From: Chloroflexota bacterium
Lineage (GTDB): Bacteria > Chloroflexota > Dehalococcoidia > SM23-28-2 > RBG-16-64-32
Direction: 5' to 3'
Assembly (NCBI GenBank): GCA_022574655.1
Contig: JACZRQ010000001.1
Coordinates: 6,214-70,213 of the forward strand
DNA: 64,000 nucleotides
Shown here: in pieces, positions 1 through 57,056 of the stretch
Layout: every line of letters begins with the position of its first letter
How positions within the stretch are numbered: position 1 is the first letter of the stretch
Translations under genes and position numbers: made by a program
Notes under the pieces: generated by a model
Database searches by the model: none
Told to the model about the DNA's origin: nothing
The model's input: the letters and a program-made list of their open reading frames with translations, nothing else

Positions 1-1319
1 AGTATTTCGGTGGGCGCCATGATGACGCCCTGGTAGCCGCTCTTGACGGCTGCGAGCAGCGCCGCGGCGGCGACGACGGTCTTACCGCTTCCGACATCAC
101 CTTCGAGCAGTCGGTTCATAGCAACGCCACCACCGATGTTCGCCAGGATCGCAGCGATCGCTTTTTCCTGCGCTCCAGTCAGCGGGAACGGCAGCGACCG
201 TACGAAGCCGTCACGTGTTTCGTCGGGCAGCTCAAGCGCGGGCGCGCCGCCTCGCGATTCCCATTCCCGCCGCCGCCGAACGACGCCGATCTCGATGAAC
301 AGCAGTTCCTCGAACGCGAACCGGTTTCGGGCCGCCTCCGCATCCTCCAGTGAGTCTGGAGCGTGAATCTGGCGAATGGCGTCCGGCGAGGCCCAAAGGT
401 CGAACCGCTCTCGTATGGCGTCTGGTATCGGGTCAGTGAGACGACCGGCGAAGTTGTCCAGCGCGTGCTGGATTGCTGAGCGAATCATCCCCTGAGTCAG
501 CTTGTCGGTCGATTTGTACACCGGGACGAGCCGGCGCTGACGCAAGGACTCATCGTCAATGTCATGAATCTCGGGACCGTCCATCTGCAAGCGACCGCGG
601 TAGTGGGAGACTTTCCCGCTGAGGGCGATCTTCTCGCCCTGCCTCAACCGGCGCGCCACCCAGGGTTGTCCCCACCAGATCGCGCGCAAGGTTCCGGTCT
701 CGTCGCCGATGATGGCCTCGGCAGCTCTTCTCCGGCCGATCGGCTTGACGCCGACGGACCAAATTTCGCCCATGACCGTTTGCTCGCCGTCCGGCTCAAG
801 TTCGGCTATGGGTCGTAGCTCGGAATAGTCGTGGTAGCGCGTCGGGAAGTGGTAGAGGAGATCGCGAACGGACGAGACGCCGATCTTAGCGAATTTCTGC
901 TCAACCGCCCGGGTGATGCCGGGGAGAACGCTTACGGGCGAGTTGAGCGTTCCGATTATTTCCTGTGGAGCGGGCTTGGCCGGAGACTTCGGCTTCGCCT
1001 TTGAGACGGGCGTCGATTTACGAGGCTTTGGTGGCGGAGACTTCGGCTCGGACGTGCGAGGGGTCGGCGGGATACCGTTCTCCGAGGCAGCTGAAAGCTC
1101 GTCCACGACGCGCTTTCTCTGGATCGGATGCAGGGAGCGGTAGCCGCCGAAGGGCAGGGACTTCAGGATCTTGGTGATCTTGTGCGATGGGGAGAGGGAG
1201 GACCCTTGTGCGAAGTTGAGCAAGTAGCCGTCGAGACCACCGACGACGGCTGTGTCTCTAAATTTTCGCTGGCGTTCCAGCGCCAGTATTTTCCTGAGTT
1301 GTTCGACCGCCTCCGTCAA
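1..1319 (-). CDS. recG: ATP-dependent DNA helicase RecG, N-terminal ~440 codons; the 3' end lies beyond the window start
   Basis: Minus-strand translation of 1..110 gives LLEGDVGSGKTVVAAAALLAAVKSGYQGVIMAPT (Walker A, RecG helicase core). The frame stays open up to a TTG at 1319 and the N-terminus contains a wedge/HhH-like region (LPGITRAVEQKFAKIGVSSVRDLLYHFPTRY). recG-degV-yloV synteny supports the call. Confidence 0.8.
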   Translation of the reverse strand, partial: MTEAVEQLRKILALERQRKFRDTAVVGGLDGYLLNFAQGSSLSPSHKITKILKSLPFGGYRSLHPIQRKRVVDELSAASENGIPPTPRTSEPKSPPPKPRKSTPVSKAKPKSPAKPAPQEIIGTLNSPVSVLPGITRAVEQKFAKIGVSSVRDLLYHFPTRYHDYSELRPIAELEPDGEQTVMGEIWSVGVKPIGRRRAAEAIIGDETGTLRAIWWGQPWVARRLRQGEKIALSGKVSHYRGRLQMDGPEIHDIDDESLRQRRLVPVYKSTDKLTQGMIRSAIQHALDNFAGRLTDPIPDAIRERFDLWASPDAIRQIHAPDSLEDAEAARNRFAFEELLFIEIGVVRRRREWESRGGAPALELPDETRDGFVRSLPFPLTGAQEKAIAAILANIGGGVAMNRLLEGDVGSGKTVVAAAALLAAVKSGYQGVIMAPTEI

Positions 1320-5399: not shown

Positions 5400-6799
5400 G
5401 ATTGTCCCTCAAGCCGCTTCCGTGCTTCGGCGAGGGCGGCTTCTACACGGTTGGGCGCCGTACCGCCGGGCACGTCGCGGGCGGCGATAGACGAACGAAC
5501 ATCGAGCGATAGGATGTCGTCCTCGAACAGCGGCGAGCAGGCGCGGAAATCGGCGAGCGTGAGTTCGTGCAGGCCCTTCCCGGAGTCCTGCGCAGACGCC
5601 ACGAGCTTCGTGACCGCCTGGTGCGCGTCGCGGAAGGGCATGCCTTTGCGAACGAGGTAGTCGGCCACGTCCGTCGCCAAAGTGTACGAGCCTGCCGCTG
5701 CTTCCTCAGATTTGGCGGCGTCGATCTGAAGCGCCGGGATCATCGCCGCTAGAACTTCTAGCGTCGGCAGGAGCGTGTCGACCGTGTCGAACAGCGGCTC
5801 TTTGTCCTCTTGCAGGTCGCGGTTGTAGGCCAGCGGCAGCCCCTTCAGCGTCGTGAGGATCGCGATCAGGTTGCCGTATACACGGCCGGTGCGGCCGCGG
5901 GCCAGCTCGGCGATGTCCGGATTGCGTTTCTGCGGCATGATGCTGGAACCGGTCGCGAACTGCGGCGGCAGCTTCAGGAAGCCAAACTCAGCGCTGGACC
6001 AGACGATGATATCTTCGCACAGCCGCGAGAGGTGCATCATTATGGTCGCGGCGGCGGCGTGGAAGTCGATAACGAAGTCGCGGTCCGAGACAGCGTCGAT
6101 GCTGTTGCGGCTGACGCGGCTAAAGCCAAGCTCCTTCGCGACGAAGTCACGATCGATGTCGTACGGCACGCCGGCGAGCGCACCGGAACCGAGCGGCAGC
6201 TCATCTGCATTTTCGCGAGCGACAGTGAAGCGGCGGACGTCGCGATCGAGCATCTCGAAGTACGCGAGCAGATGATGCGCGAGAAGCACGGGCTGCGCCC
6301 GCTGCAGGTGGGTGTAACCGGGCACAACGACATCGCGGTTCGCCTCGGCTAGCTGTAGCAGGGCCGATTGAAGCGCCCTGGTCCCCGCGACCGTATCCTC
6401 ACACGCCTGCATCACGAACAACCGCATGTCGGTCGCGACCTGGTCGTTGCGGGAGCGCGCTGTGTGTAGACGTGCGGCGGCATCGCCGATCTTTTCCCGC
6501 AGTCTCACCTCGATGTTGAGGTGGACGTCCTCTAGCTCCTCACGCCAAGGGAAGGTATCGCTCTCGATCTCCCGCCGGATGTCTTCGAGACCGCGCACGA
6601 TCGAGTCTGCGTCTTCGGTCGAGATGATCGCTTGTTTGCCGAGCATCCGGGCGTGCGCGATCGACCCAGCGATGTCATCGCGGTAGAGCCTGCGATCGTA
6701 GGCTATCGAAGCGCTGTACTTGAGGGCGCGGCGATCGAGGCCGCTCGCGGTCGGGCTCTTGGCGGACGAGTCGTCAGCCATCGGCGCGGCCATTCGCAA
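5396..6799 (-). CDS. argH: argininosuccinate lyase
   Basis: 467 aa containing SRNDQVATDMRLF and GSSIMPQKRNPD, the fumarate-lyase/ASL signatures. It lies in an arg gene cluster. Confidence 0.9.
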   Translation of the reverse strand: MRMAAPMADDSSAKSPTASGLDRRALKYSASIAYDRRLYRDDIAGSIAHARMLGKQAIISTEDADSIVRGLEDIRREIESDTFPWREELEDVHLNIEVRLREKIGDAAARLHTARSRNDQVATDMRLFVMQACEDTVAGTRALQSALLQLAEANRDVVVPGYTHLQRAQPVLLAHHLLAYFEMLDRDVRRFTVARENADELPLGSGALAGVPYDIDRDFVAKELGFSRVSRNSIDAVSDRDFVIDFHAAAATIMMHLSRLCEDIIVWSSAEFGFLKLPPQFATGSSIMPQKRNPDIAELARGRTGRVYGNLIAILTTLKGLPLAYNRDLQEDKEPLFDTVDTLLPTLEVLAAMIPALQIDAAKSEEAAAGSYTLATDVADYLVRKGMPFRDAHQAVTKLVASAQDSGKGLHELTLADFRACSPLFEDDILSLDVRSSIAARDVPGGTAPNRVEAALAEARKRLEGQS

Positions 6800-7568
6800 A
6801 GAGGGGGATGCTCCTGATGTCGGCGAGCGTTGAGATGGTGTAGTCGGGCACGGGGCCGGGTTCGTCTTCGGCAGGCTCGTCCTCGGTCTCCTCGACGGGC
6901 TCGTCCTTCACAGGCTTGCGCCAGACGGCGACCATGCCGAGCGCCTTCGATCCGCCAACGTCCGCATGGAGGCTATCGCCGACCATGGCGGCCTGATTCG
7001 CTTCGAGGTTCAGTTCTCCGAGTGCCAGTTCGTAAATCATGGGATGCGGTTTCATGTAGCCGACATCACAGGAGATGACGGTGGTCTCGAAGAGGTCGGT
7101 CAGCCCGAGGTCGGCCAGCTCCTGGTGGAAGCGCGGTCCGCTGTGGCCGCGGTTAGTGACACACCCAATCCGATACCCTTTGTCCCGCAGCCAGTGCAGC
7201 GTATCGAGCGCGTCCGGGAACAGCTTACGACCGAGAAAGGCGCCACCGAGGTTCCAGGTGTCCCACAGCTCTTCGCCTTGCTCCCGGGTTAGCTCCATGT
7301 CATGTTCCGCAGCGACCTTGCGACAGAGCGCCGGATAGCCGGGATCGATGCTGTCGCCGTGGAAAGCGCGGTGTGTTGCATCCTCGATCGAAAGGCGGAT
7401 GTCACGTCCGAGGTAGAAGCGGCCATCCGTGAACTCATGGCCCCAGCTTTCGACCAGACGTTTGAGACGCGAAACAGTCTCTCGCCGAATGACCTTGCCG
7501 GGCGGCATGCTTGGGAAGTGCCAAAGCGTGTCGCCGAGATCGAACAGGACCGCCTTGATCTCGCTCAC
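6774..7568 (-). CDS. HAD superfamily hydrolase
   Basis: 264 aa with the N-terminal HAD motif I (AVLFDLGDTLW). It is inserted between argG and argH. Confidence 0.7.
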   Translation of the reverse strand: MSEIKAVLFDLGDTLWHFPSMPPGKVIRRETVSRLKRLVESWGHEFTDGRFYLGRDIRLSIEDATHRAFHGDSIDPGYPALCRKVAAEHDMELTREQGEELWDTWNLGGAFLGRKLFPDALDTLHWLRDKGYRIGCVTNRGHSGPRFHQELADLGLTDLFETTVISCDVGYMKPHPMIYELALGELNLEANQAAMVGDSLHADVGGSKALGMVAVWRKPVKDEPVEETEDEPAEDEPGPVPDYTISTLADIRSIPLFANGRADG

Positions 7569-12030: not shown

Positions 12031-13050
12031 TTACGGGTATAGCGCCGGCATGTCGATACCCATGGTCTCCGGCAGCCCGAGCATAGCGTTCATGTTCTGG
12101 ATCGCCTGCCCTGCCGCGCCCTTAACGAGGTTGTCGAGGACGCTAACGACCACGAGCCTGTCAGTCCTTTGATCGACCGTCGGGTACACGTGGCAGGCGT
12201 TGGTGCCTCTCACCTGCTTCGTCGAGGGCGGGGCATCAACGATTCGGACGAACGGTTCGTCGCTGTAGAACTGTTGGTACAGCTCGCGAACCTCCACCTC
12301 CGTCTTCGTTGTTGATAGCGGCGCATAGCAGGTCGAGAGGATGCCACGCGTCATCGGGACCAAGTGTGGTGTAAACGTCACCTTCGGCGACTCGGACTCC
12401 CGCCACATCTTCCGTAGCTCCTGGACGATCTCCGGCAAATGCCGGTGCCCTTTGAGGCCGTACACCGACACGCTTTCTCCCGCCTCGGCGAGCAGCAGGC
12501 TCTGCTTGAGACCACGACCCGCGCCCGAGACACCGGACTTGGAGTCGATGATGATGTCTGGGCCGATGAGTCCGGCCTTGGCTGCGGGCGCCAGCGCCAG
12601 CAGCGCACTCTCGGGATAGCAGCCTGGGTTGGCGATTAGCTTCGATGCTTTCACCGCCTCGCGGTTGAGCTCAGTGAGGCCGTATGCGACCTTCGGAAGC
12701 AGTTCGGGCGCTGGGTGCTCGCCGCCATACCACTCGGCGTACTCCTTGGCGTCGTTGAGGCGGAAGTCGGCGCTGATATCGACGACGGGCACTCCCGATT
12801 GGACGAGGGGCGCGACGCTCTCTGCGCTGGCAGCGTGCGGCAGTGCCGAGAACACGAAGTCGACGTCGCCAAGCTCGGGGTCGACGGCCATGTCGTAGGC
12901 AGCGAGGTGCGGGAAGACTTCGGCGAGCTTCTTCCCGGCTTCGCTGCGGCCGGTGACGCTGGCGAGTTGGGCTTCGGGGTGGTTGTACAGCAAGCGAGCG
13001 AGTTCGGCGCCGGCATATCCTGTTACGTTCAGTATTCCCACTTTCACCAT
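12031..13050 (-). CDS. argC: N-acetyl-gamma-glutamyl-phosphate reductase
   Basis: MVKVGILNVTGYAGAELARLL matches the ArgC N-terminal Rossmann motif. The start is taken as the ATG at 13050, preceded by GGAGA; the ORF extends to 13083 but that stretch overlaps a terminator hairpin. Confidence 0.85.
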   Translation of the reverse strand: MVKVGILNVTGYAGAELARLLYNHPEAQLASVTGRSEAGKKLAEVFPHLAAYDMAVDPELGDVDFVFSALPHAASAESVAPLVQSGVPVVDISADFRLNDAKEYAEWYGGEHPAPELLPKVAYGLTELNREAVKASKLIANPGCYPESALLALAPAAKAGLIGPDIIIDSKSGVSGAGRGLKQSLLLAEAGESVSVYGLKGHRHLPEIVQELRKMWRESESPKVTFTPHLVPMTRGILSTCYAPLSTTKTEVEVRELYQQFYSDEPFVRIVDAPPSTKQVRGTNACHVYPTVDQRTDRLVVVSVLDNLVKGAAGQAIQNMNAMLGLPETMGIDMPALYP

Positions 13051-13062
13051 CGGACAGTCTCC

Positions 13063-13099
13063 AAAACTAAAAATCCCCACCACTCGTGTAGTGGTGGGG
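13063..13099 (-). terminator. intrinsic (rho-independent) terminator-like hairpin plus U-tract in the argC 5' leader; possible attenuator
   Basis: On the minus strand, a perfect 10-bp GC-rich stem CCCCACCACT / AGTGGTGGGG with loop ACACG (13099..13075) is followed by AUUUUUAGUUUU (13074..13063). The U-tract then runs straight into the argC RBS GGAGA and the AUG at 13050. Confidence 0.6.
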
Positions 13100-13123
13100 C
13101 GTTTCCGCTCTCGTTATCTGCGT

Positions 13124-13201
13124 CTAACGACGGGTACGACGAAGCCACCCAACCACTGGCTGGACTCGTCGCGGACGCGGGAATGCGTTAACTGCCGTCA
13201 T
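13124..13201 (-). other. candidate Arg-rich leader mini-ORF (25 codons) upstream of the terminator and argC
   Basis: The minus-strand ORF ATG..TAG encodes MTAVNAFPRPRRVQPVVGWLRRTRR (7 Arg in 25 residues, ending RRTRR-stop 25 nt before the terminator stem). A possible TTGACA -35 lies at 13240..13235, about 18 nt before a TAACGT -10-like hexamer. The base rate of Arg-rich small ORFs in high-GC DNA is high, so confidence is low. Confidence 0.25.
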
Positions 13202-13493
13202 GATTCGTATACGTTAGGGTGTGCGTACGGGCGGTGTCAAGGGAGAGGCACTGAGACGGACCGTCGGCCGATCTCGTTCAGTGTTAAGATTGGCGTCACC
13301 CTGAGACGGTCGATACAGTGATCAAGGCCACACCGACAAGAACGATCAACAGAAGGAGAGCCACCGCCACGATGAGCATTCGGGTTGACATTTCAGACTC
13401 TTCACGCATGGTTGGCCTGAGACCACTCTACGGTAGGCATCGTGATTCAAACCGTGACCCTGCTCACATCCCAGGCAAATCTATGAGCACACC

Positions 13494-14606
13494 ATGCTCA
13501 TAGTAGCACGCAAGAATCTCTTCTCAGAACGCGTACGGCTGGCGATCTCAGTGGGCGGTATCGCTCTGTCGGTGCTGCTGATCACTTTCCTCCTGGCGTT
13601 GTTCCGCGGCTGGAACGAGAAGGTCGGTGGGTTCGTGGAGGAGGTTGACGCAGATATTTGGATCGCACGCGAAGGCACGACCGACTTCTTGGTCGCCGCG
13701 TCGATCCTGCCGTTAGAGGGCGCCGACGAGCGCTTTGCCAGGATCGATTCGATCGAACGATGGAGTCCTTTGATTGCCGTACCCATGGGAGCCACCAAGG
13801 GCGACACCAAGATGGATATACAGCTGATCGGCTTCGATCCTGCTACGGGTATGGGCGGTCCAGTTCGCGTTACTGATGGTAAAAGCGTTCCGGGTCCCGG
13901 TGAGATGATTATCGACCAGGCGCTGACCAGCCGTTACGGGGTGGAGATCGGGGACTCGCTCAACGCTGCTGGAACCGACTGGGAAGTCGTTGGCAAGTCC
14001 ACCGGCGGCGATTTCGTGGCCTCGCAAGCGGTGTTCGTGACAATTGAGCAGGCTCAAGCAGCGCTGGTGATGGAGGGGCTCGCAACGTTCCTTCTGGTCG
14101 ATCTGGTTGAGATGAGAGACCCGGCTACTTACGCGCGAACCATCGCGGGTAATCAGCCGGGCGTAGTCGGCATAACCAGCGAGGAGTTTGCCGCCGCAAC
14201 CCGCGACCGGGTCCTCGGCGACGTAATTCCGATACTAACGGTGATCTTAATACTAGCGTTTATCGTTGGTCTGGCTGTGGCCGGACTGACGATCTACACG
14301 GCAACGGTTGAAAAAGCACGCGAATACGGGATTCTGAAGGCGGTGGGATTCCCGAACAGTTATCTGTACCGGGTGGTATTCGAACAAAGTATCGTGACTG
14401 GGCTGTTAGGCTTCGGCATCGGGACTGGCATAACCGTAGTGGCTGGGAGCTTCATTCAAGACCTTGTGCCACAGTTCGTCACACTCATCCGTTGGCAAGA
14501 CGTTCTCGCAGTGGCGGGCGTCACCCTGGTCATGTCGGTGCTCGCAGCATACGTACCGATACGTCGACTGGCCGCCATCGATCCAGTAGCGGTGTTTAAG
14601 GCATAA
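13494..14606 (+). CDS. ABC transporter permease, FtsX/MacB-like
   Basis: 370 aa with an N-terminal TM helix, a large extracytoplasmic domain and C-terminal TM helices, the MacB/FtsX-type architecture. It is followed by a cognate ATPase. Confidence 0.75.
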   Translation: MLIVARKNLFSERVRLAISVGGIALSVLLITFLLALFRGWNEKVGGFVEEVDADIWIAREGTTDFLVAASILPLEGADERFARIDSIERWSPLIAVPMGATKGDTKMDIQLIGFDPATGMGGPVRVTDGKSVPGPGEMIIDQALTSRYGVEIGDSLNAAGTDWEVVGKSTGGDFVASQAVFVTIEQAQAALVMEGLATFLLVDLVEMRDPATYARTIAGNQPGVVGITSEEFAAATRDRVLGDVIPILTVILILAFIVGLAVAGLTIYTATVEKAREYGILKAVGFPNSYLYRVVFEQSIVTGLLGFGIGTGITVVAGSFIQDLVPQFVTLIRWQDVLAVAGVTLVMSVLAAYVPIRRLAAIDPVAVFKA

Positions 14607-14610
14607 GAAG

Positions 14611-15453
14611 ATGGCTGACGACAGAGTAGCCCTTAGGCTCCGTGGCGTGACAAAGATTTACAGTCTTGCTGACTCCGAGGTGATTGCTCTGGACACCGTC
14701 GACTTCGAGGCTCAGGCCGGTCAGGTGGTGGTGATCATGGGCCCGTCCGGCGCCGGTAAAACAACGTTCCTCACGATCGCGGGCACGCTGATGAAGCCGA
14801 CCTCGGGAACGATAGAGGTCGCCGGCATCGAGACCACGAAGCTAAAGGAGAAAGAGCTGGCATCGATCAGGCGTGAGAACGTGGGCTTCATCTTTCAGAG
14901 CTTCAACCTACTTGAGTCACTGACAGCGCTGGAGAATGTGAGAGTGGTAGCCGCCGGCGGGATCACGGCACCGGCAAGCGATACCAACCGAGCGCGCGAA
15001 CTGCTGAACATGTTCGGACTGGACCATAGATTGCATTCGCTTCCGAGACAGCTCAGCGGCGGCGAGAAGCAGCGCGTGGCGATAGCGCGATCGCTGATGA
15101 ACAATCCAGAGATCATTCTGGCTGACGAGCCGACCGGAAATCTGGACTACAAGCGCGGTCAAGAAGTCATGGAGCTACTGCTGCAGATCTCGGTGGAGCT
15201 TCGCAAGGCGGTGGTGATCGTCAGTCACGACCATCGCGTCCGCGAGGTGGCGCACCGCTCGCTCTGGCTCCAGGACGGCAGCTTCCGGGACACGATAGTG
15301 ACGGCCAACGATCCGGTCTGCGGGCAGCTGGTAGAGGTCGATTCAGCCTCGGCGGTGACGTGGGAGAACAAGGACTATTACTTCTGTGCAGGCGAGTGCC
15401 GCCAGTTGTTCAAAGCGAACCAGCAGAAGTACGCAAAACGGGAATCAAAGTAG
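14611..15453 (+). CDS. ABC transporter ATP-binding protein with a C-terminal YHS metal-binding domain
   Basis: Walker A (GPSGAGKTT), signature (LSGGEKQRV) and Walker B (ILADEPT) are present. The C-terminal ~45 aa DPVCGQLVEVDSASAVTWENKDYYFCAGECRQLFKANQQKY match the YHS domain consensus (DPVCGM.V...YYFCS..C...F...P.KY). Confidence 0.8.
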   Translation: MADDRVALRLRGVTKIYSLADSEVIALDTVDFEAQAGQVVVIMGPSGAGKTTFLTIAGTLMKPTSGTIEVAGIETTKLKEKELASIRRENVGFIFQSFNLLESLTALENVRVVAAGGITAPASDTNRARELLNMFGLDHRLHSLPRQLSGGEKQRVAIARSLMNNPEIILADEPTGNLDYKRGQEVMELLLQISVELRKAVVIVSHDHRVREVAHRSLWLQDGSFRDTIVTANDPVCGQLVEVDSASAVTWENKDYYFCAGECRQLFKANQQKYAKRESK

Positions 15454-22852: not shown

Positions 22853-22926
22853 TCTCCTTTCGCCGAAGCGGAAATGAACAGTCGCCCTTCGTACGAAGGG
22901 CGACTTATCGATTGGGTTCTCGTTGC

Positions 22927-23455: not shown

Positions 23456-25084
<1,629 letters not shown>

Positions 25085-37455: not shown

Positions 37456-38906
37456 ATGTCCGGCTGTGCTTCGGACTCCAGGCACAGATATTCGTTGATG
37501 GCCGCTCCGGCGCGCTTGGCGTCGGCTAGCGCGGTCACCACCAGGTCCGCTCCACGAACGTTGTCGCCGGCGGCGAAGACGCCGGAGCGGCTGGTCGTAC
37601 CGTCGCTGTTGACGGCGACGGTGCCCCACTCGGTCGCGCAAAGGCCGGGAGTTGTCTCGGTCAAGGTGGCGTCGACTTCGTAGCCGATAGCGACGACGAC
37701 GGTATCGGCCTCGATCTCGAACTCAGAACCGGCGATCGGCTCCGGGCGCCGGCGCCCAGACTCATCCTCATCGCCCAGTTGCATGCGCTGGAGCCGCACT
37801 GTACGGACCGACTCGTCGTCATCTCCCGACAGGATTTCGACGGGGTTGACGAGGAAGGCGAACTCGACGCCTTCCTCTTTTGCATGCCGGCGTTCCTCGA
37901 CACGGCCAATCATCTCGGACTCGTTTCGACGGTAAGCGCAGACGACTGTTTCGGCCCCGGTGCGGACCGCCGATCTGACGGAGTCCATCGCGGTATCACC
38001 ACCACCGATGACGACGACATGCTTACCAACTTCAAGCGGCTGCCTCATATGGGCCGGAAGCTCATCGGCTTCAAGATTCGTACGCACGAGAAACTCCGTT
38101 GCCGCGTAGACGCCTTCGAGCTGCTCGCCCGGGATTCCCATCCGCCTCGCTTTTCCGGCGCCGTGACCGAGAAAGATGGCATCGTAGCCGTCAGCGAAAA
38201 GTTGGTCAATCGGCACGTCCCGGCCGATGACCCGGTCGAACACAAACTGGACACCAAGGGAGTGGAGATAGTCGACCTGGTCGTCGATGTGGAGCTTGTC
38301 CATTTTGAAGGTAGGAATGCCGTATCGCAGGATGCCTCCTGGCCGCGGCCATGCCTCGAACACTTTCACACCGTGCCCACGCCTAGCGAGCGTCTCCGCC
38401 ACGGCCAGGCCCGCGGGTCCCGATCCGACGACAGCGACCCGTTTCCCCGTCGAAGGAGCCGATTCTGGAGCAGTCCTGCCACCGTGATCGCGCTCGTAGT
38501 CAGCCACAAACGCCTCGAGCCTACCGATGGCGACTGGAATCGCCTTCTTGCCGACGACGCAGCTACCTTCGCAGAGGCTCTCCTGGGGGCAGAGCCGCCC
38601 GCACATGTCCGGCGCCGGGTTCGTCTCGCGGAACACGGCCGCGGCGCCCAGCGCATCACCACTTTCGAGCTTGAGCAGCGCACCCGGTATGTCGTTGTCC
38701 ACCGGACAGGCCTTCTGACACGGCACGGCCGGACACTGGATGCAACGCATCGCTTCCAGTTTGGCGGTCTCGAGGTCGTAGCTTTCGTAAACCTCCAGCC
38801 AGTTGTGCACGCGCTGCTCCGGCCGCTGTTTTGGCGAGGGTTGGTACGGAATACGAAGCCGCGCCTTGCGGTCGATCGACTTCAGTTCGTTCGTATCTAT
38901 GACCAT
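37452..38906 (-). CDS. GltD-like FAD/NAD(P)-dependent oxidoreductase with N-terminal [4Fe-4S] motifs (orphan glutamate synthase small-chain homolog)
   Basis: Cys clusters CIQCPAVPCQKACP...CGRLCPQESLCEGSC are followed by the dinucleotide motif [14 protein letters not shown]. The probable start is MVIDTNEL at 38906; the ORF extends to 38960. Confidence 0.75.
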   Translation of the reverse strand: MVIDTNELKSIDRKARLRIPYQPSPKQRPEQRVHNWLEVYESYDLETAKLEAMRCIQCPAVPCQKACPVDNDIPGALLKLESGDALGAAAVFRETNPAPDMCGRLCPQESLCEGSCVVGKKAIPVAIGRLEAFVADYERDHGGRTAPESAPSTGKRVAVVGSGPAGLAVAETLARRGHGVKVFEAWPRPGGILRYGIPTFKMDKLHIDDQVDYLHSLGVQFVFDRVIGRDVPIDQLFADGYDAIFLGHGAGKARRMGIPGEQLEGVYAATEFLVRTNLEADELPAHMRQPLEVGKHVVVIGGGDTAMDSVRSAVRTGAETVVCAYRRNESEMIGRVEERRHAKEEGVEFAFLVNPVEILSGDDDESVRTVRLQRMQLGDEDESGRRRPEPIAGSEFEIEADTVVVAIGYEVDATLTETTPGLCATEWGTVAVNSDGTTSRSGVFAAGDNVRGADLVVTALADAKRAGAAINEYLCLESEAQPDI

Positions 38907-56835: not shown

Positions 56836-57056
56836 TTTGTCCTCCTTTTGACAGGTGCCCACCCGCCCACCCATTGAAGAAGGGGACACCCCCATGCCCT
56901 CAGCCCCGATTGGATCGGGGAACCCGCTTGCCTCAGATTATACGGACACCGGCCTGACGGCGGGCTAAAGCCCGCCCCCCAAAGGATCAGCGCGGGCCAA
57001 TTGGGAAGCCCGGTGGTCTCCCACCGGGCTTTGTGTCTCGTGTTAGGTTTGCGGCG

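Follow-up and report, generated by a model that had tools for sequence, protein, structure and literature searches.

A probable arginine-codon transcription attenuator in the argC leader of a Chloroflexota bacterium and its relatives

Introduction

How is arginine biosynthesis controlled in a bacterium whose arginine operon has a terminator-like hairpin immediately before its first gene? The question is raised by a 64,000-nt stretch of DNA from a Chloroflexota bacterium of the class Dehalococcoidia (GenBank assembly GCA_022574655.1, contig JACZRQ010000001.1, positions 6,214 to 70,213 of the forward strand). This whole stretch is called the window below, and all positions are counted within it. 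The operon lies on the minus strand and begins with argC (12031..13050, ATG at 13050), the product of which matches the Pfam families Semialdhyde_dh and Semialdhyde_dhC_1. Arginine biosynthesis is the textbook example of control by the ArgR repressor, and leader-peptide attenuation is well known for the operons of Trp, His, Leu, Thr, Phe, and Ile/Val. A sequence-only reading of the window proposed that the region before argC, which holds an intrinsic terminator and an Arg-rich mini-ORF (open reading frame), could be an attenuator of the arginine operon. Comparative and folding evidence, presented here, supports that proposal. The argC leader is probably a ribosome-mediated (leader-peptide) transcription attenuator that would set the expression of argCJBDGH according to the supply of charged tRNA-Arg.

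The argC leader

Read on the minus strand, the leader consists of a TTGACA hexamer, a TAACGT hexamer, the leader ORF, the hairpin, a U-tract, and a Shine-Dalgarno (SD) sequence, after which argC begins. The hairpin has the form of an intrinsic terminator (13063..13100, minus strand). It is made of a G followed by CCCCACCACT (13099..13090), a loop ACACG, AGTGGTGGGG (13084..13075), and the tail ATTTTTAGTTTT (13074..13063). The 10 pairs of the stem are perfect, 7 of them are G-C, and the stem has a folding energy of -20.0 kcal/mol. As had been claimed, the U-tract runs into the GGAGA that is read from the sequence as the argC SD (13058..13062, minus strand), and the tail ends 12 nt before the argC ATG. 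The relatives described below also have a GGAG-type SD after the T-tract. The SD of the window is mostly unpaired in the minimum free energy (MFE) fold, where the first G alone is paired, at the base of an extended terminator helix. A purine-rich segment, AGAGCGGAAA, lies just 5' of the terminator (13063..13113, minus strand) and can pair with the U-tract, which lengthens the helix beyond 10 bp.

A loose terminator scan found 5 sites, compared to 6.2 expected in shuffled sequence. Since there was no excess, the hairpin alone is not significant. The argC-leader hairpin was the sole 10-pair site of the scan within 8-18 kb, and the motif CCCCACC...GGTGGGG occurs once in the 64 kb compared to 0 expected. 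The gene upstream of the leader encodes an FtsX/MacB-type ABC permease, starts at 13494, and is divergent. Therefore, the hairpin in the window cannot be the terminator of an upstream gene.

Conservation of the leader in relatives

The sequence-only reading had set conservation of the hairpin and the mini-ORF before argC as its own test. ArgC relatives were collected with one genome per species. The close ones are uncultured Dehalococcoidia or Chloroflexota with 64-76% ArgC identity. In 31 loci (L001-L030 and L077), the 130-170 nt before argC carry the hairpin core GCCCCACC...GGTGGGG, a T-rich tail, and a short upstream ORF with an Arg core. A profile hidden Markov model (HMM) built from the aligned leaders matched at full length in exactly 38 sources, the window and 37 others, and each match lies directly upstream of argC. 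Both the hairpin and the mini-ORF are thus kept in 37 relatives. In the window, the HMM gave one match (13204..13061, E=1.4e-18); elsewhere, the palindrome alone was matched. A pattern scan of metagenomes returned at least 120 loci. Among the matches listed, 6 were true leaders, all directly before argC, and 114 were unrelated GC-rich palindromes; no second type of operon with the element was found among them. The element is absent in the more distant Dehalococcoidia (L031-L076, up to 62% ArgC identity).

The hairpin core is invariant in the 38 leaders, and the terminators of the leaders range from -16 to -25 kcal/mol. CCCCACC and GGTGGGG are separated by a spacer of 4 to 12 nt, depending on the leader, and the T-rich tail is found on the argC strand alone. 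We also considered the palindrome as a DNA operator, which the variable spacer and the one-strand T-tract make unlikely.

The genes upstream of the leader were compared across the 31 genome loci. They represent several unrelated families, with no gene similar to the ABC permease of the window. Shadow ORFs, which arise in GC-rich DNA, made the clustering of these upstream ORFs noisy, and it was used solely to show that the neighbors differ. Since the upstream genes differ, the module travels with argC.

Many of the element-free relatives (among L031-L076) have a promoter-like TTGCTATACT about 35 nt before argC. In L039-L047 and L066-L068, this conserved box, about 45 nt before argC, is followed by ATGCTGGTTGT(A/T)TAGGAG, which contains a mini-ORF of 4 codons (MLVV) with a stop codon that overlaps the argC SD.

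The leader ORF and its arginine codons

The leader ORF of the window, MTAVNAFPRPRRVQPVVGWLRRTRR, has 25 codons and a TAG stop (13124..13201, minus strand; stop codon 13126..13124). All of its reported features were found, including the 7 Arg codons, with the trivial correction that the stop codon lies 24 nt rather than 25 nt before the stem. An Arg cluster occupies codons 9-12, CGT CCG CGA CGA (R-P-R-R; 13166..13177, minus strand), and aligns with the R-x-R-R-P-R-P core of relatives. A second group of Arg codons, all CGT, is formed by codons 21, 22, 24, and 25 at the end of the ORF (13127..13141, minus strand).

An open frame of 23-35 codons, ending 24-45 nt before the terminator arm, is present in 38/38 leaders. 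Start codons exchange between ATG and GTG, stop codons exchange among TAG, TAA, and TGA, and the Arg codons themselves vary (CGA, CGC, CGT, CGG, or AGG). Cores of the R-x-R-R-P-R-P type are found, for example, in MFLAPESRARRPRPVSGAVSHVFR, MTALRIRDAQPRPRPSFGGGFPVPAGSR, and VTVAFDGRERRRARPIAGGAPSHACR. Other versions of the core are RPRR, RARRPRP, QPRPRP, RERRRARP, and WRRPRS; Arg codons alone are common to all of them, and the rest of the leader peptide outside the core is not conserved. Insertions and deletions between the start codon and the cluster preserve the frame; one of them is a 15-nt insertion in L006. In the closest subgroup (L002, L003, L004, L005, L007, and L013), the changes in the R-A-R-R-P-R-P core are all synonymous third-position changes, while codons 4-6 change amino acid freely.

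Arg makes up 22% of leader residues compared to 6% in the genes of the window. The choice of codon is also unusual: 53% of the Arg codons in leaders, and nearly the whole cluster, are CGA, compared to 7% in ten window genes. Both the density of the cluster and the use of CGA depend on the reading frame. The densest 7-codon window holds a mean of 3.6 Arg codons in frame 0 and 2.2-2.4 in the other frames, and there are 3.0 CGA codons per leader in frame 0 and 0.3-0.5 in the others. Taken together, the exchange of start and stop codons, the kept frame, the synonymous changes in the core, and the frame-specific CGA favor translation of the leader ORF. In a Salmonella his-leader reporter, CGA was slower than CGU or CGC and caused strong de-attenuation (PMC4046918). 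Since CGA is read slowly, it is the codon expected for a sensitive sensor.

The ORF ends with an Arg codon before the stop in 29/38 leaders: CGA or CGC, and CGT in the window (13127..13129). This ORF-final Arg codon may act as a second checkpoint, or it may serve RNA pairing at the base of a long hairpin.

Alternative pairings and simulated ribosome stalls

If the leader is an attenuator, the RNA should be able to fold in mutually exclusive ways. Such antiterminator and terminator structures, for which the sequence-only reading had proposed a fold check, were found. The segment AGTGGTTGGGT within the ORF had been suggested as the partner of the 5' arm of the terminator. This segment corresponds to a G-rich box, AGUGGUUGGGU (13147..13157, minus strand), which is a near-copy of the terminator 3' arm and would form the 5' strand of the antiterminator. 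The G-box is the best duplex partner of the 5' arm in the window (-15.7 kcal/mol), and 0/300 shuffles were as good. In 30/31 leaders, the segment that pairs best with the 5' arm is such a G-rich box (GUGGGGC, GGCGGUGGG, or, in the window, AGUGGUUGGGU). It lies directly past the Arg cluster, at ORF nt 44-61, or at nt 67-76 in L006 because of the insertion. The duplexes of the G-box and the 5' arm range from -13 to -23 kcal/mol in the 31 leaders. When 300 dinucleotide shuffles were made per leader as a control, few or none did as well in most leaders.

The G-box has a second possible partner. Folds of the leader as far as the arm show it, in nearly all sequences, paired back onto the Arg/Pro codons. 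MFE folds of the window contain a hairpin 1:2 (anti-antiterminator; 13136..13172, minus strand) of the form GCGACGAG-U-CCA-G-CCA / UGG-G-UGG-C-UUCGUCGU. The 5' strand of this hairpin contains the Arg codons, and the 3' strand contains the G-box. An analogous hairpin, centered between the Arg/Pro codons and the G-box, occurs in most relatives. When its MFE pairs were mapped to alignment columns, they were shared in about 1/3 of the sequences. Since subgroups use different registers, few pairs are shared and we do not claim a consensus 1:2 helix.

The effect of a stalled ribosome was simulated by masking a 28-nt footprint at every A-site position and folding the transcript before the 3' arm exists. 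In the free RNA of the window, the 5' arm is unpaired and the terminator is able to form. Placing the A site at codon 9, 11, or 12 yields the antiterminator AGUGGU-UGGGU/GCCCCA-CCACU. Otherwise, it forms solely with the A site at codon 25 or at the stop codon; codons 21-24 do not yield it. Across the 31 genome-derived leaders, the median probability that the 5' arm is sequestered is 0.27 in free RNA; it rises to 0.87 when the first Arg of the densest 7-codon Arg stretch occupies the A site. This densest stretch differs from the G-box-proximal cluster in the window, L010, L015, and L016, but the profiles taken codon by codon follow the same course in these four. Sequestration becomes sharply less probable 1-2 codons past the last codon of the cluster in all leaders. 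A stall at the ORF-final Arg codon gives a second, smaller antiterminator peak. In these simulations, the Arg cluster is the last set of positions from which a stall can select the antiterminator, which is the geometry of a classical attenuator.

We also looked for compensatory changes. RNAalifold on a MAFFT alignment recovered the invariant 8-bp terminator core alone, with zero covariation. Pairs were also counted on a hand-anchored alignment of the G-box, the 5' arm, and the 3' arm, and this showed little covariation beyond arm positions 9-11. Arm position 9 pairs with the G-box as G-C, G-U, A-U (in the window), or C-G (in L029, L030, and one further sequence). The cores, CCCCACC/GGUGGGG in the terminator and GGGG/CCCC in the antiterminator, are invariant and, therefore, covariation is weak and uninformative. 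Our interpretation is that this invariance fits a region 3 that must serve two partners, region 2 and region 4.

Promoter and start of the leader ORF

The promoter proposed for the leader, a -35 hexamer TTGACA (13235..13240, minus strand) with a TAACGT as the -10 hexamer (13211..13216, minus strand), is present at those positions and is kept in relatives. The -10 hexamer follows the -35 hexamer after an 18-nt spacer and stands 9 nt before the leader ATG. TTGAC[A/T/G] is found in 38/38 leaders, with its distance to the leader start codon unchanged. In 31/31 genome-derived leaders, TTGAC[A/T] is followed 17-18 nt on by TAnnnT and 9 nt later by ATG or GTG, usually within CATCATG. In L098, L145, and L153, TTGAC[A/G] is followed 16-17 nt on by TATAAT, and the ATG is 6 nt past the -10 hexamer. 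Neither the window nor any of the leaders examined has an SD between the -10 hexamer and the ATG or GTG of the leader ORF. Transcription usually starts 6-8 nt past the -10 hexamer and, thus, the predicted 5' untranslated region of the leader is 0-3 nt. The spacing of the -10 hexamer and the start codon, together with the missing SD, suggests a leader ORF that is leaderless or nearly so.

Other regulators sought

Searches for known regulators gave no competing candidate. Rfam had no relevant match at the gathering threshold in the whole window or in 20 related loci, and known amino-acid leader families (His, Trp, Leu, Thr, Phe, etc.) were not matched in either set. When the threshold was relaxed to E<=10 for 12900..13600, the sole match was spurious, to the Pseudomonas sRNA P9 hairpin (12.5 bits compared to a threshold of 43). 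No T-box was matched at E<=10 in the same region, in a search by covariance model alone and with no separate search for specifier-loop or T-box sequences. A tRNA/tmRNA scan found none.

The sequence-only reading had remarked that the gene cluster lacks argR, and we detected no ArgR homolog in the 64-kb window. The best tblastn match to ArgR/AhrC in the window had E=0.14, and none was found within 2.5 kb of argC in 80 relatives, with E. coli ArgR and B. subtilis AhrC as queries. There was also no match in the window, with up to 3 mismatches, to the consensus TNTGAATWWWWATTCANW of the ARG box, an AT-rich palindrome of 18 bp.

Neighboring genes and other hairpins

By Pfam, the order of the operon on the minus strand is argC, argJ, argB, argD, argG, a HAD hydrolase gene, argH, and rpe. 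The families of the arginine genes that follow argC are ArgJ, AA_kinase, Aminotran_3, Arginosuc_synth, and ASL_C2. The HAD-family hydrolase gene (6774..7568, minus strand) lies between argG and argH and overlaps argG by 4 nt and argH by 26 nt; it appears to be part of the arginine operon.

Between the start of the ABC permease gene and the leader promoter is a 37-codon ORF (13296..13409, minus strand) with a strongly hydrophobic product, MREESEMSTRMLIVAVALLLLIVLVGVALITVSTVSG, and may represent a small membrane protein or chance. An ABC ATPase gene (14611..15453, plus strand), divergent from argC, encodes a protein whose C-terminal part is similar to a YHS (metal-binding) domain, with a score of 27.8 bits compared to the Pfam cutoff of 30.3 bits.

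Other strong hairpins with a T-tract are found at 22881..22904 (minus strand), 57008..57029 (plus strand), and 37853..37875 (plus strand). The hairpin at 22881..22904 separates two genes of the same direction and is followed closely by an AAAGGAG SD. The one at 57008..57029 is intergenic, and the one at 37853..37875 is inside an open frame. No amino-acid-rich mini-ORF was found upstream of these three or of the hairpins at 24050..24069 and 1269..1286 (plus strand). All five look like ordinary intergenic or intragenic hairpins.

Discussion

The argC leader contains a promoter, an Arg-rich ORF, a G-box, and a terminator hairpin, in a conserved order and with mutually complementary segments. The following mechanism would bring these parts together. 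Transcription would start at the TTGACA-18-TAACGT promoter, at the leader AUG or 1-3 nt before it, and the 25-codon ORF would be translated leaderless. When Arg-tRNA is plentiful, the ribosome would run through the ORF, and the G-box (13157..13147) would be inside the ribosome or in hairpin 1:2. With the G-box occupied, the 5' arm of the terminator would be free, the 10-bp terminator would form, and the polymerase would halt at the U-tract, 12 nt short of the argC start codon. Under a shortage of Arg-tRNA, the ribosome would stall on the slow CGU/CGA/CGA cluster (codons 9-12) and hold strand 1. The freed G-box could then pair with GCCCCACCACU as it emerges from the polymerase, the terminator would not form, and transcription would read through into argC. 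Since the argC SD is essentially unpaired and the hairpin carries a U-tract, termination seems a likelier control point than translation.

Several observations weigh against this mechanism. The U-tract of the predicted terminator is interrupted. A simulated ribosome placed on the stop codon likewise favors the antiterminator in several leaders. This means that the repressed state would depend on kinetics, either through fast release and refolding of 1:2 or through a ribosome that covers the G-box. The sequence-only reading had cautioned that Arg-rich small ORFs are common by chance in high-GC DNA. This holds for Arg content as such, since Arg is frequent in all three reading frames of the leaders (21%, 17%, and 15%), but not for the dense cluster and the CGA codons, which are frame-specific. 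In three group-B leaders, the cluster holds no more than two Arg codons. Because the C-rich Arg/Pro codons also form the strand that pairs with the G-box, the constraints of coding and structure are confounded, and some of the enrichment in Arg could simply follow from structure. The alignment also gives little help: of the 11 terminator pairs, 7 are constant, and double changes occur at only 3 antiterminator pairs, a count that does not exceed that of shuffles. Folding of the pre-terminator leader compared to shuffles gave a modest mean z of -1.2, with 6/38 leaders below -2. Finally, translation of the ORF, the transcription start site, stalling, termination at about 13063, and the response to arginine are steps that we infer from sequence.

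Could the same parts work in another way? The terminator could be conditional without any translation, if a riboswitch ligand or an RNA-binding protein (TRAP/PyrR-like) acted on the CGA/CCG repeats or on the G-box and the ORF were incidental. The choice between terminator and antiterminator is real, the cores are conserved far beyond the needs of a simple hairpin, Arg codons occur in all frames, and the string CGACGACCGCGACC could be kept as RNA rather than as codons. However, a translation-free element would not account for the exchange of ATG with GTG and of TAG with TAA and TGA, for a frame held across insertions and deletions, for synonymous changes in the core, or for CGA in one frame. 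There is also no multi-helix structure resembling an aptamer, the fold z-scores are modest, Rfam gave no riboswitch or T-box match, and the invariance of the stem is explained by the pairing of region 3 with both region 2 and region 4. We consider this explanation unlikely. A constitutive terminator or insulator, which would block read-through or end a small upstream transcript and leave the Arg-rich ORF as a product of chance in GC-rich DNA, is less probable still. It gains something from the chance frequency of terminator-like sites in the loose scan, from how common Arg-rich short ORFs are in such DNA, and from the co-directional gene that ends about 200 nt upstream in some relatives. However, a conserved sigma-70-type promoter lies between the hairpin and any upstream gene, and constitutive termination at this place would shut off argC from the one promoter evident for it. 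The upstream gene of the window is divergent, the module of promoter, ORF, G-box, and hairpin is kept at fixed spacing in 38 sources, and the complementarity of the G-box has no role in a simple terminator.

A further possibility keeps the ribosome but changes what it senses. The nascent peptide, with its R-R-P-R-P core, could be an arrest peptide that senses free arginine in the exit tunnel rather than tRNA charging. The fungal arginine attenuator peptide and bacterial TnaC and SpeFL are parallels for such arrest. The Pro residues and the R-x-R-R-P-R-P spacing are conserved beyond the Arg codons alone, and Arg/Pro-rich stretches are slow to translate (PMC4046918). The sign of the response is the main difficulty: a stall at the cluster favors the antiterminator, so the operon would be on at high arginine, which is wrong for biosynthesis. 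In addition, the core varies, with Arg codons alone shared, and the remaining peptide is not conserved. We regard this version as very improbable and prefer the attenuator that reads tRNA-Arg charging.

A broader claim can be put forward only tentatively. In this clade of Dehalococcoidia, the leaderless Arg-codon attenuator might have assumed the role that ArgR plays in most bacteria and might be the main or only arginine control of the operon, with two checkpoints at the CGA cluster and the ORF-final Arg. It would then be, to our knowledge, the first natural arginine member of its class and the first in Chloroflexota. A conserved Arg attenuator would fill a gap among the amino-acid leader-peptide attenuators, and it would show that an uncultured, poorly studied phylum uses ribosome-coupled control of transcription together with leaderless translation. 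The element, about 145 nt and always upstream of argC, would also be a recognizable regulatory feature for annotating metagenome-assembled genomes of Dehalococcoidia. The preference for slow CGA codons would offer a natural test of how codon choice tunes the sensitivity of an attenuator.

We found no published description of an arginine leader-peptide attenuator in the full-text literature, most subscription journals lying outside the search. A broad survey of noncoding RNAs lists uORF attenuators for Cys and other amino acids and none for Arg (PMC8632094). A comparative study of Actinobacteria from 2005 reported no RNA element on arginine operons and cited T-boxes as the sole RNA-level arginine control elsewhere (PMC1262725). 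The T-boxes of arginine genes in Firmicutes resemble the argC leader in sensing the charging of tRNA-Arg, in choosing between a terminator and an antiterminator, and in being an alternative to ArgR (PMC1262725). In contrast to them, the argC leader has an ORF with a conserved start and stop and no match to the T-box model.

Two other systems share the use of leader codons. In the account of Ben-Zvi et al. (PMC6386406), the Salmonella speF leader orf34 also has Arg codons and reads arginine through the progress of the ribosome and alternative mRNA conformations. As described there, it belongs to an enterobacterium and controls the gene of ornithine decarboxylase, a polyamine gene, within a multi-level system, rather than arginine biosynthesis. 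In mycobacteria, leaderless poly-cysteine short ORFs lie at the 5' end of the operon mRNA and carry a run of codons for the amino acid of the operon, as is predicted here for arginine. Pausing in the run remodels the downstream mRNA, unmasks the ribosome binding site, and raises operon expression (Canestrari et al., bioRxiv 10.1101/834739). The argC leader differs from these in amino acid and phylum, and also in having a hairpin with a U-tract and an SD that is essentially unpaired rather than one to be unmasked.

The closest likeness is to the classical attenuators of E. coli and Salmonella (trpL, hisL, leuL, thrL, pheL, and ilvL). At the sequence level, the argC leader has the defining features of trp/his/leu-type leader-peptide attenuators. 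Like them, it has a short leader ORF with codons for the amino acid of the pathway, segments able to form 1:2, 3:4 (the terminator), or 2:3 (the antiterminator), and an intrinsic terminator just before the first structural gene. In the classical leaders, a ribosome that stalls at the regulatory codons selects 2:3, and folding with a masked ribosome suggests a similar placement of the Arg cluster in the argC leader. The rare CUA codons of the leu leader are a parallel to the rare, slow CGA codons of the argC leader. The two also differ in several ways. The amino acid here is arginine, the start codon has no SD and lies 6-9 nt past the -10 hexamer, the host is a member of the Chloroflexota, and there is no sequence similarity to the leaders in Rfam. 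The stop codon of a classical leader ORF lies between regions 1 and 2, whereas that of the argC leader is well downstream of region 2, and the ORF-final Arg codon, present in 29/38 leaders, is unlike the classical design. The mechanism proposed here is a textbook one; the amino acid and the phylum would be new for it.

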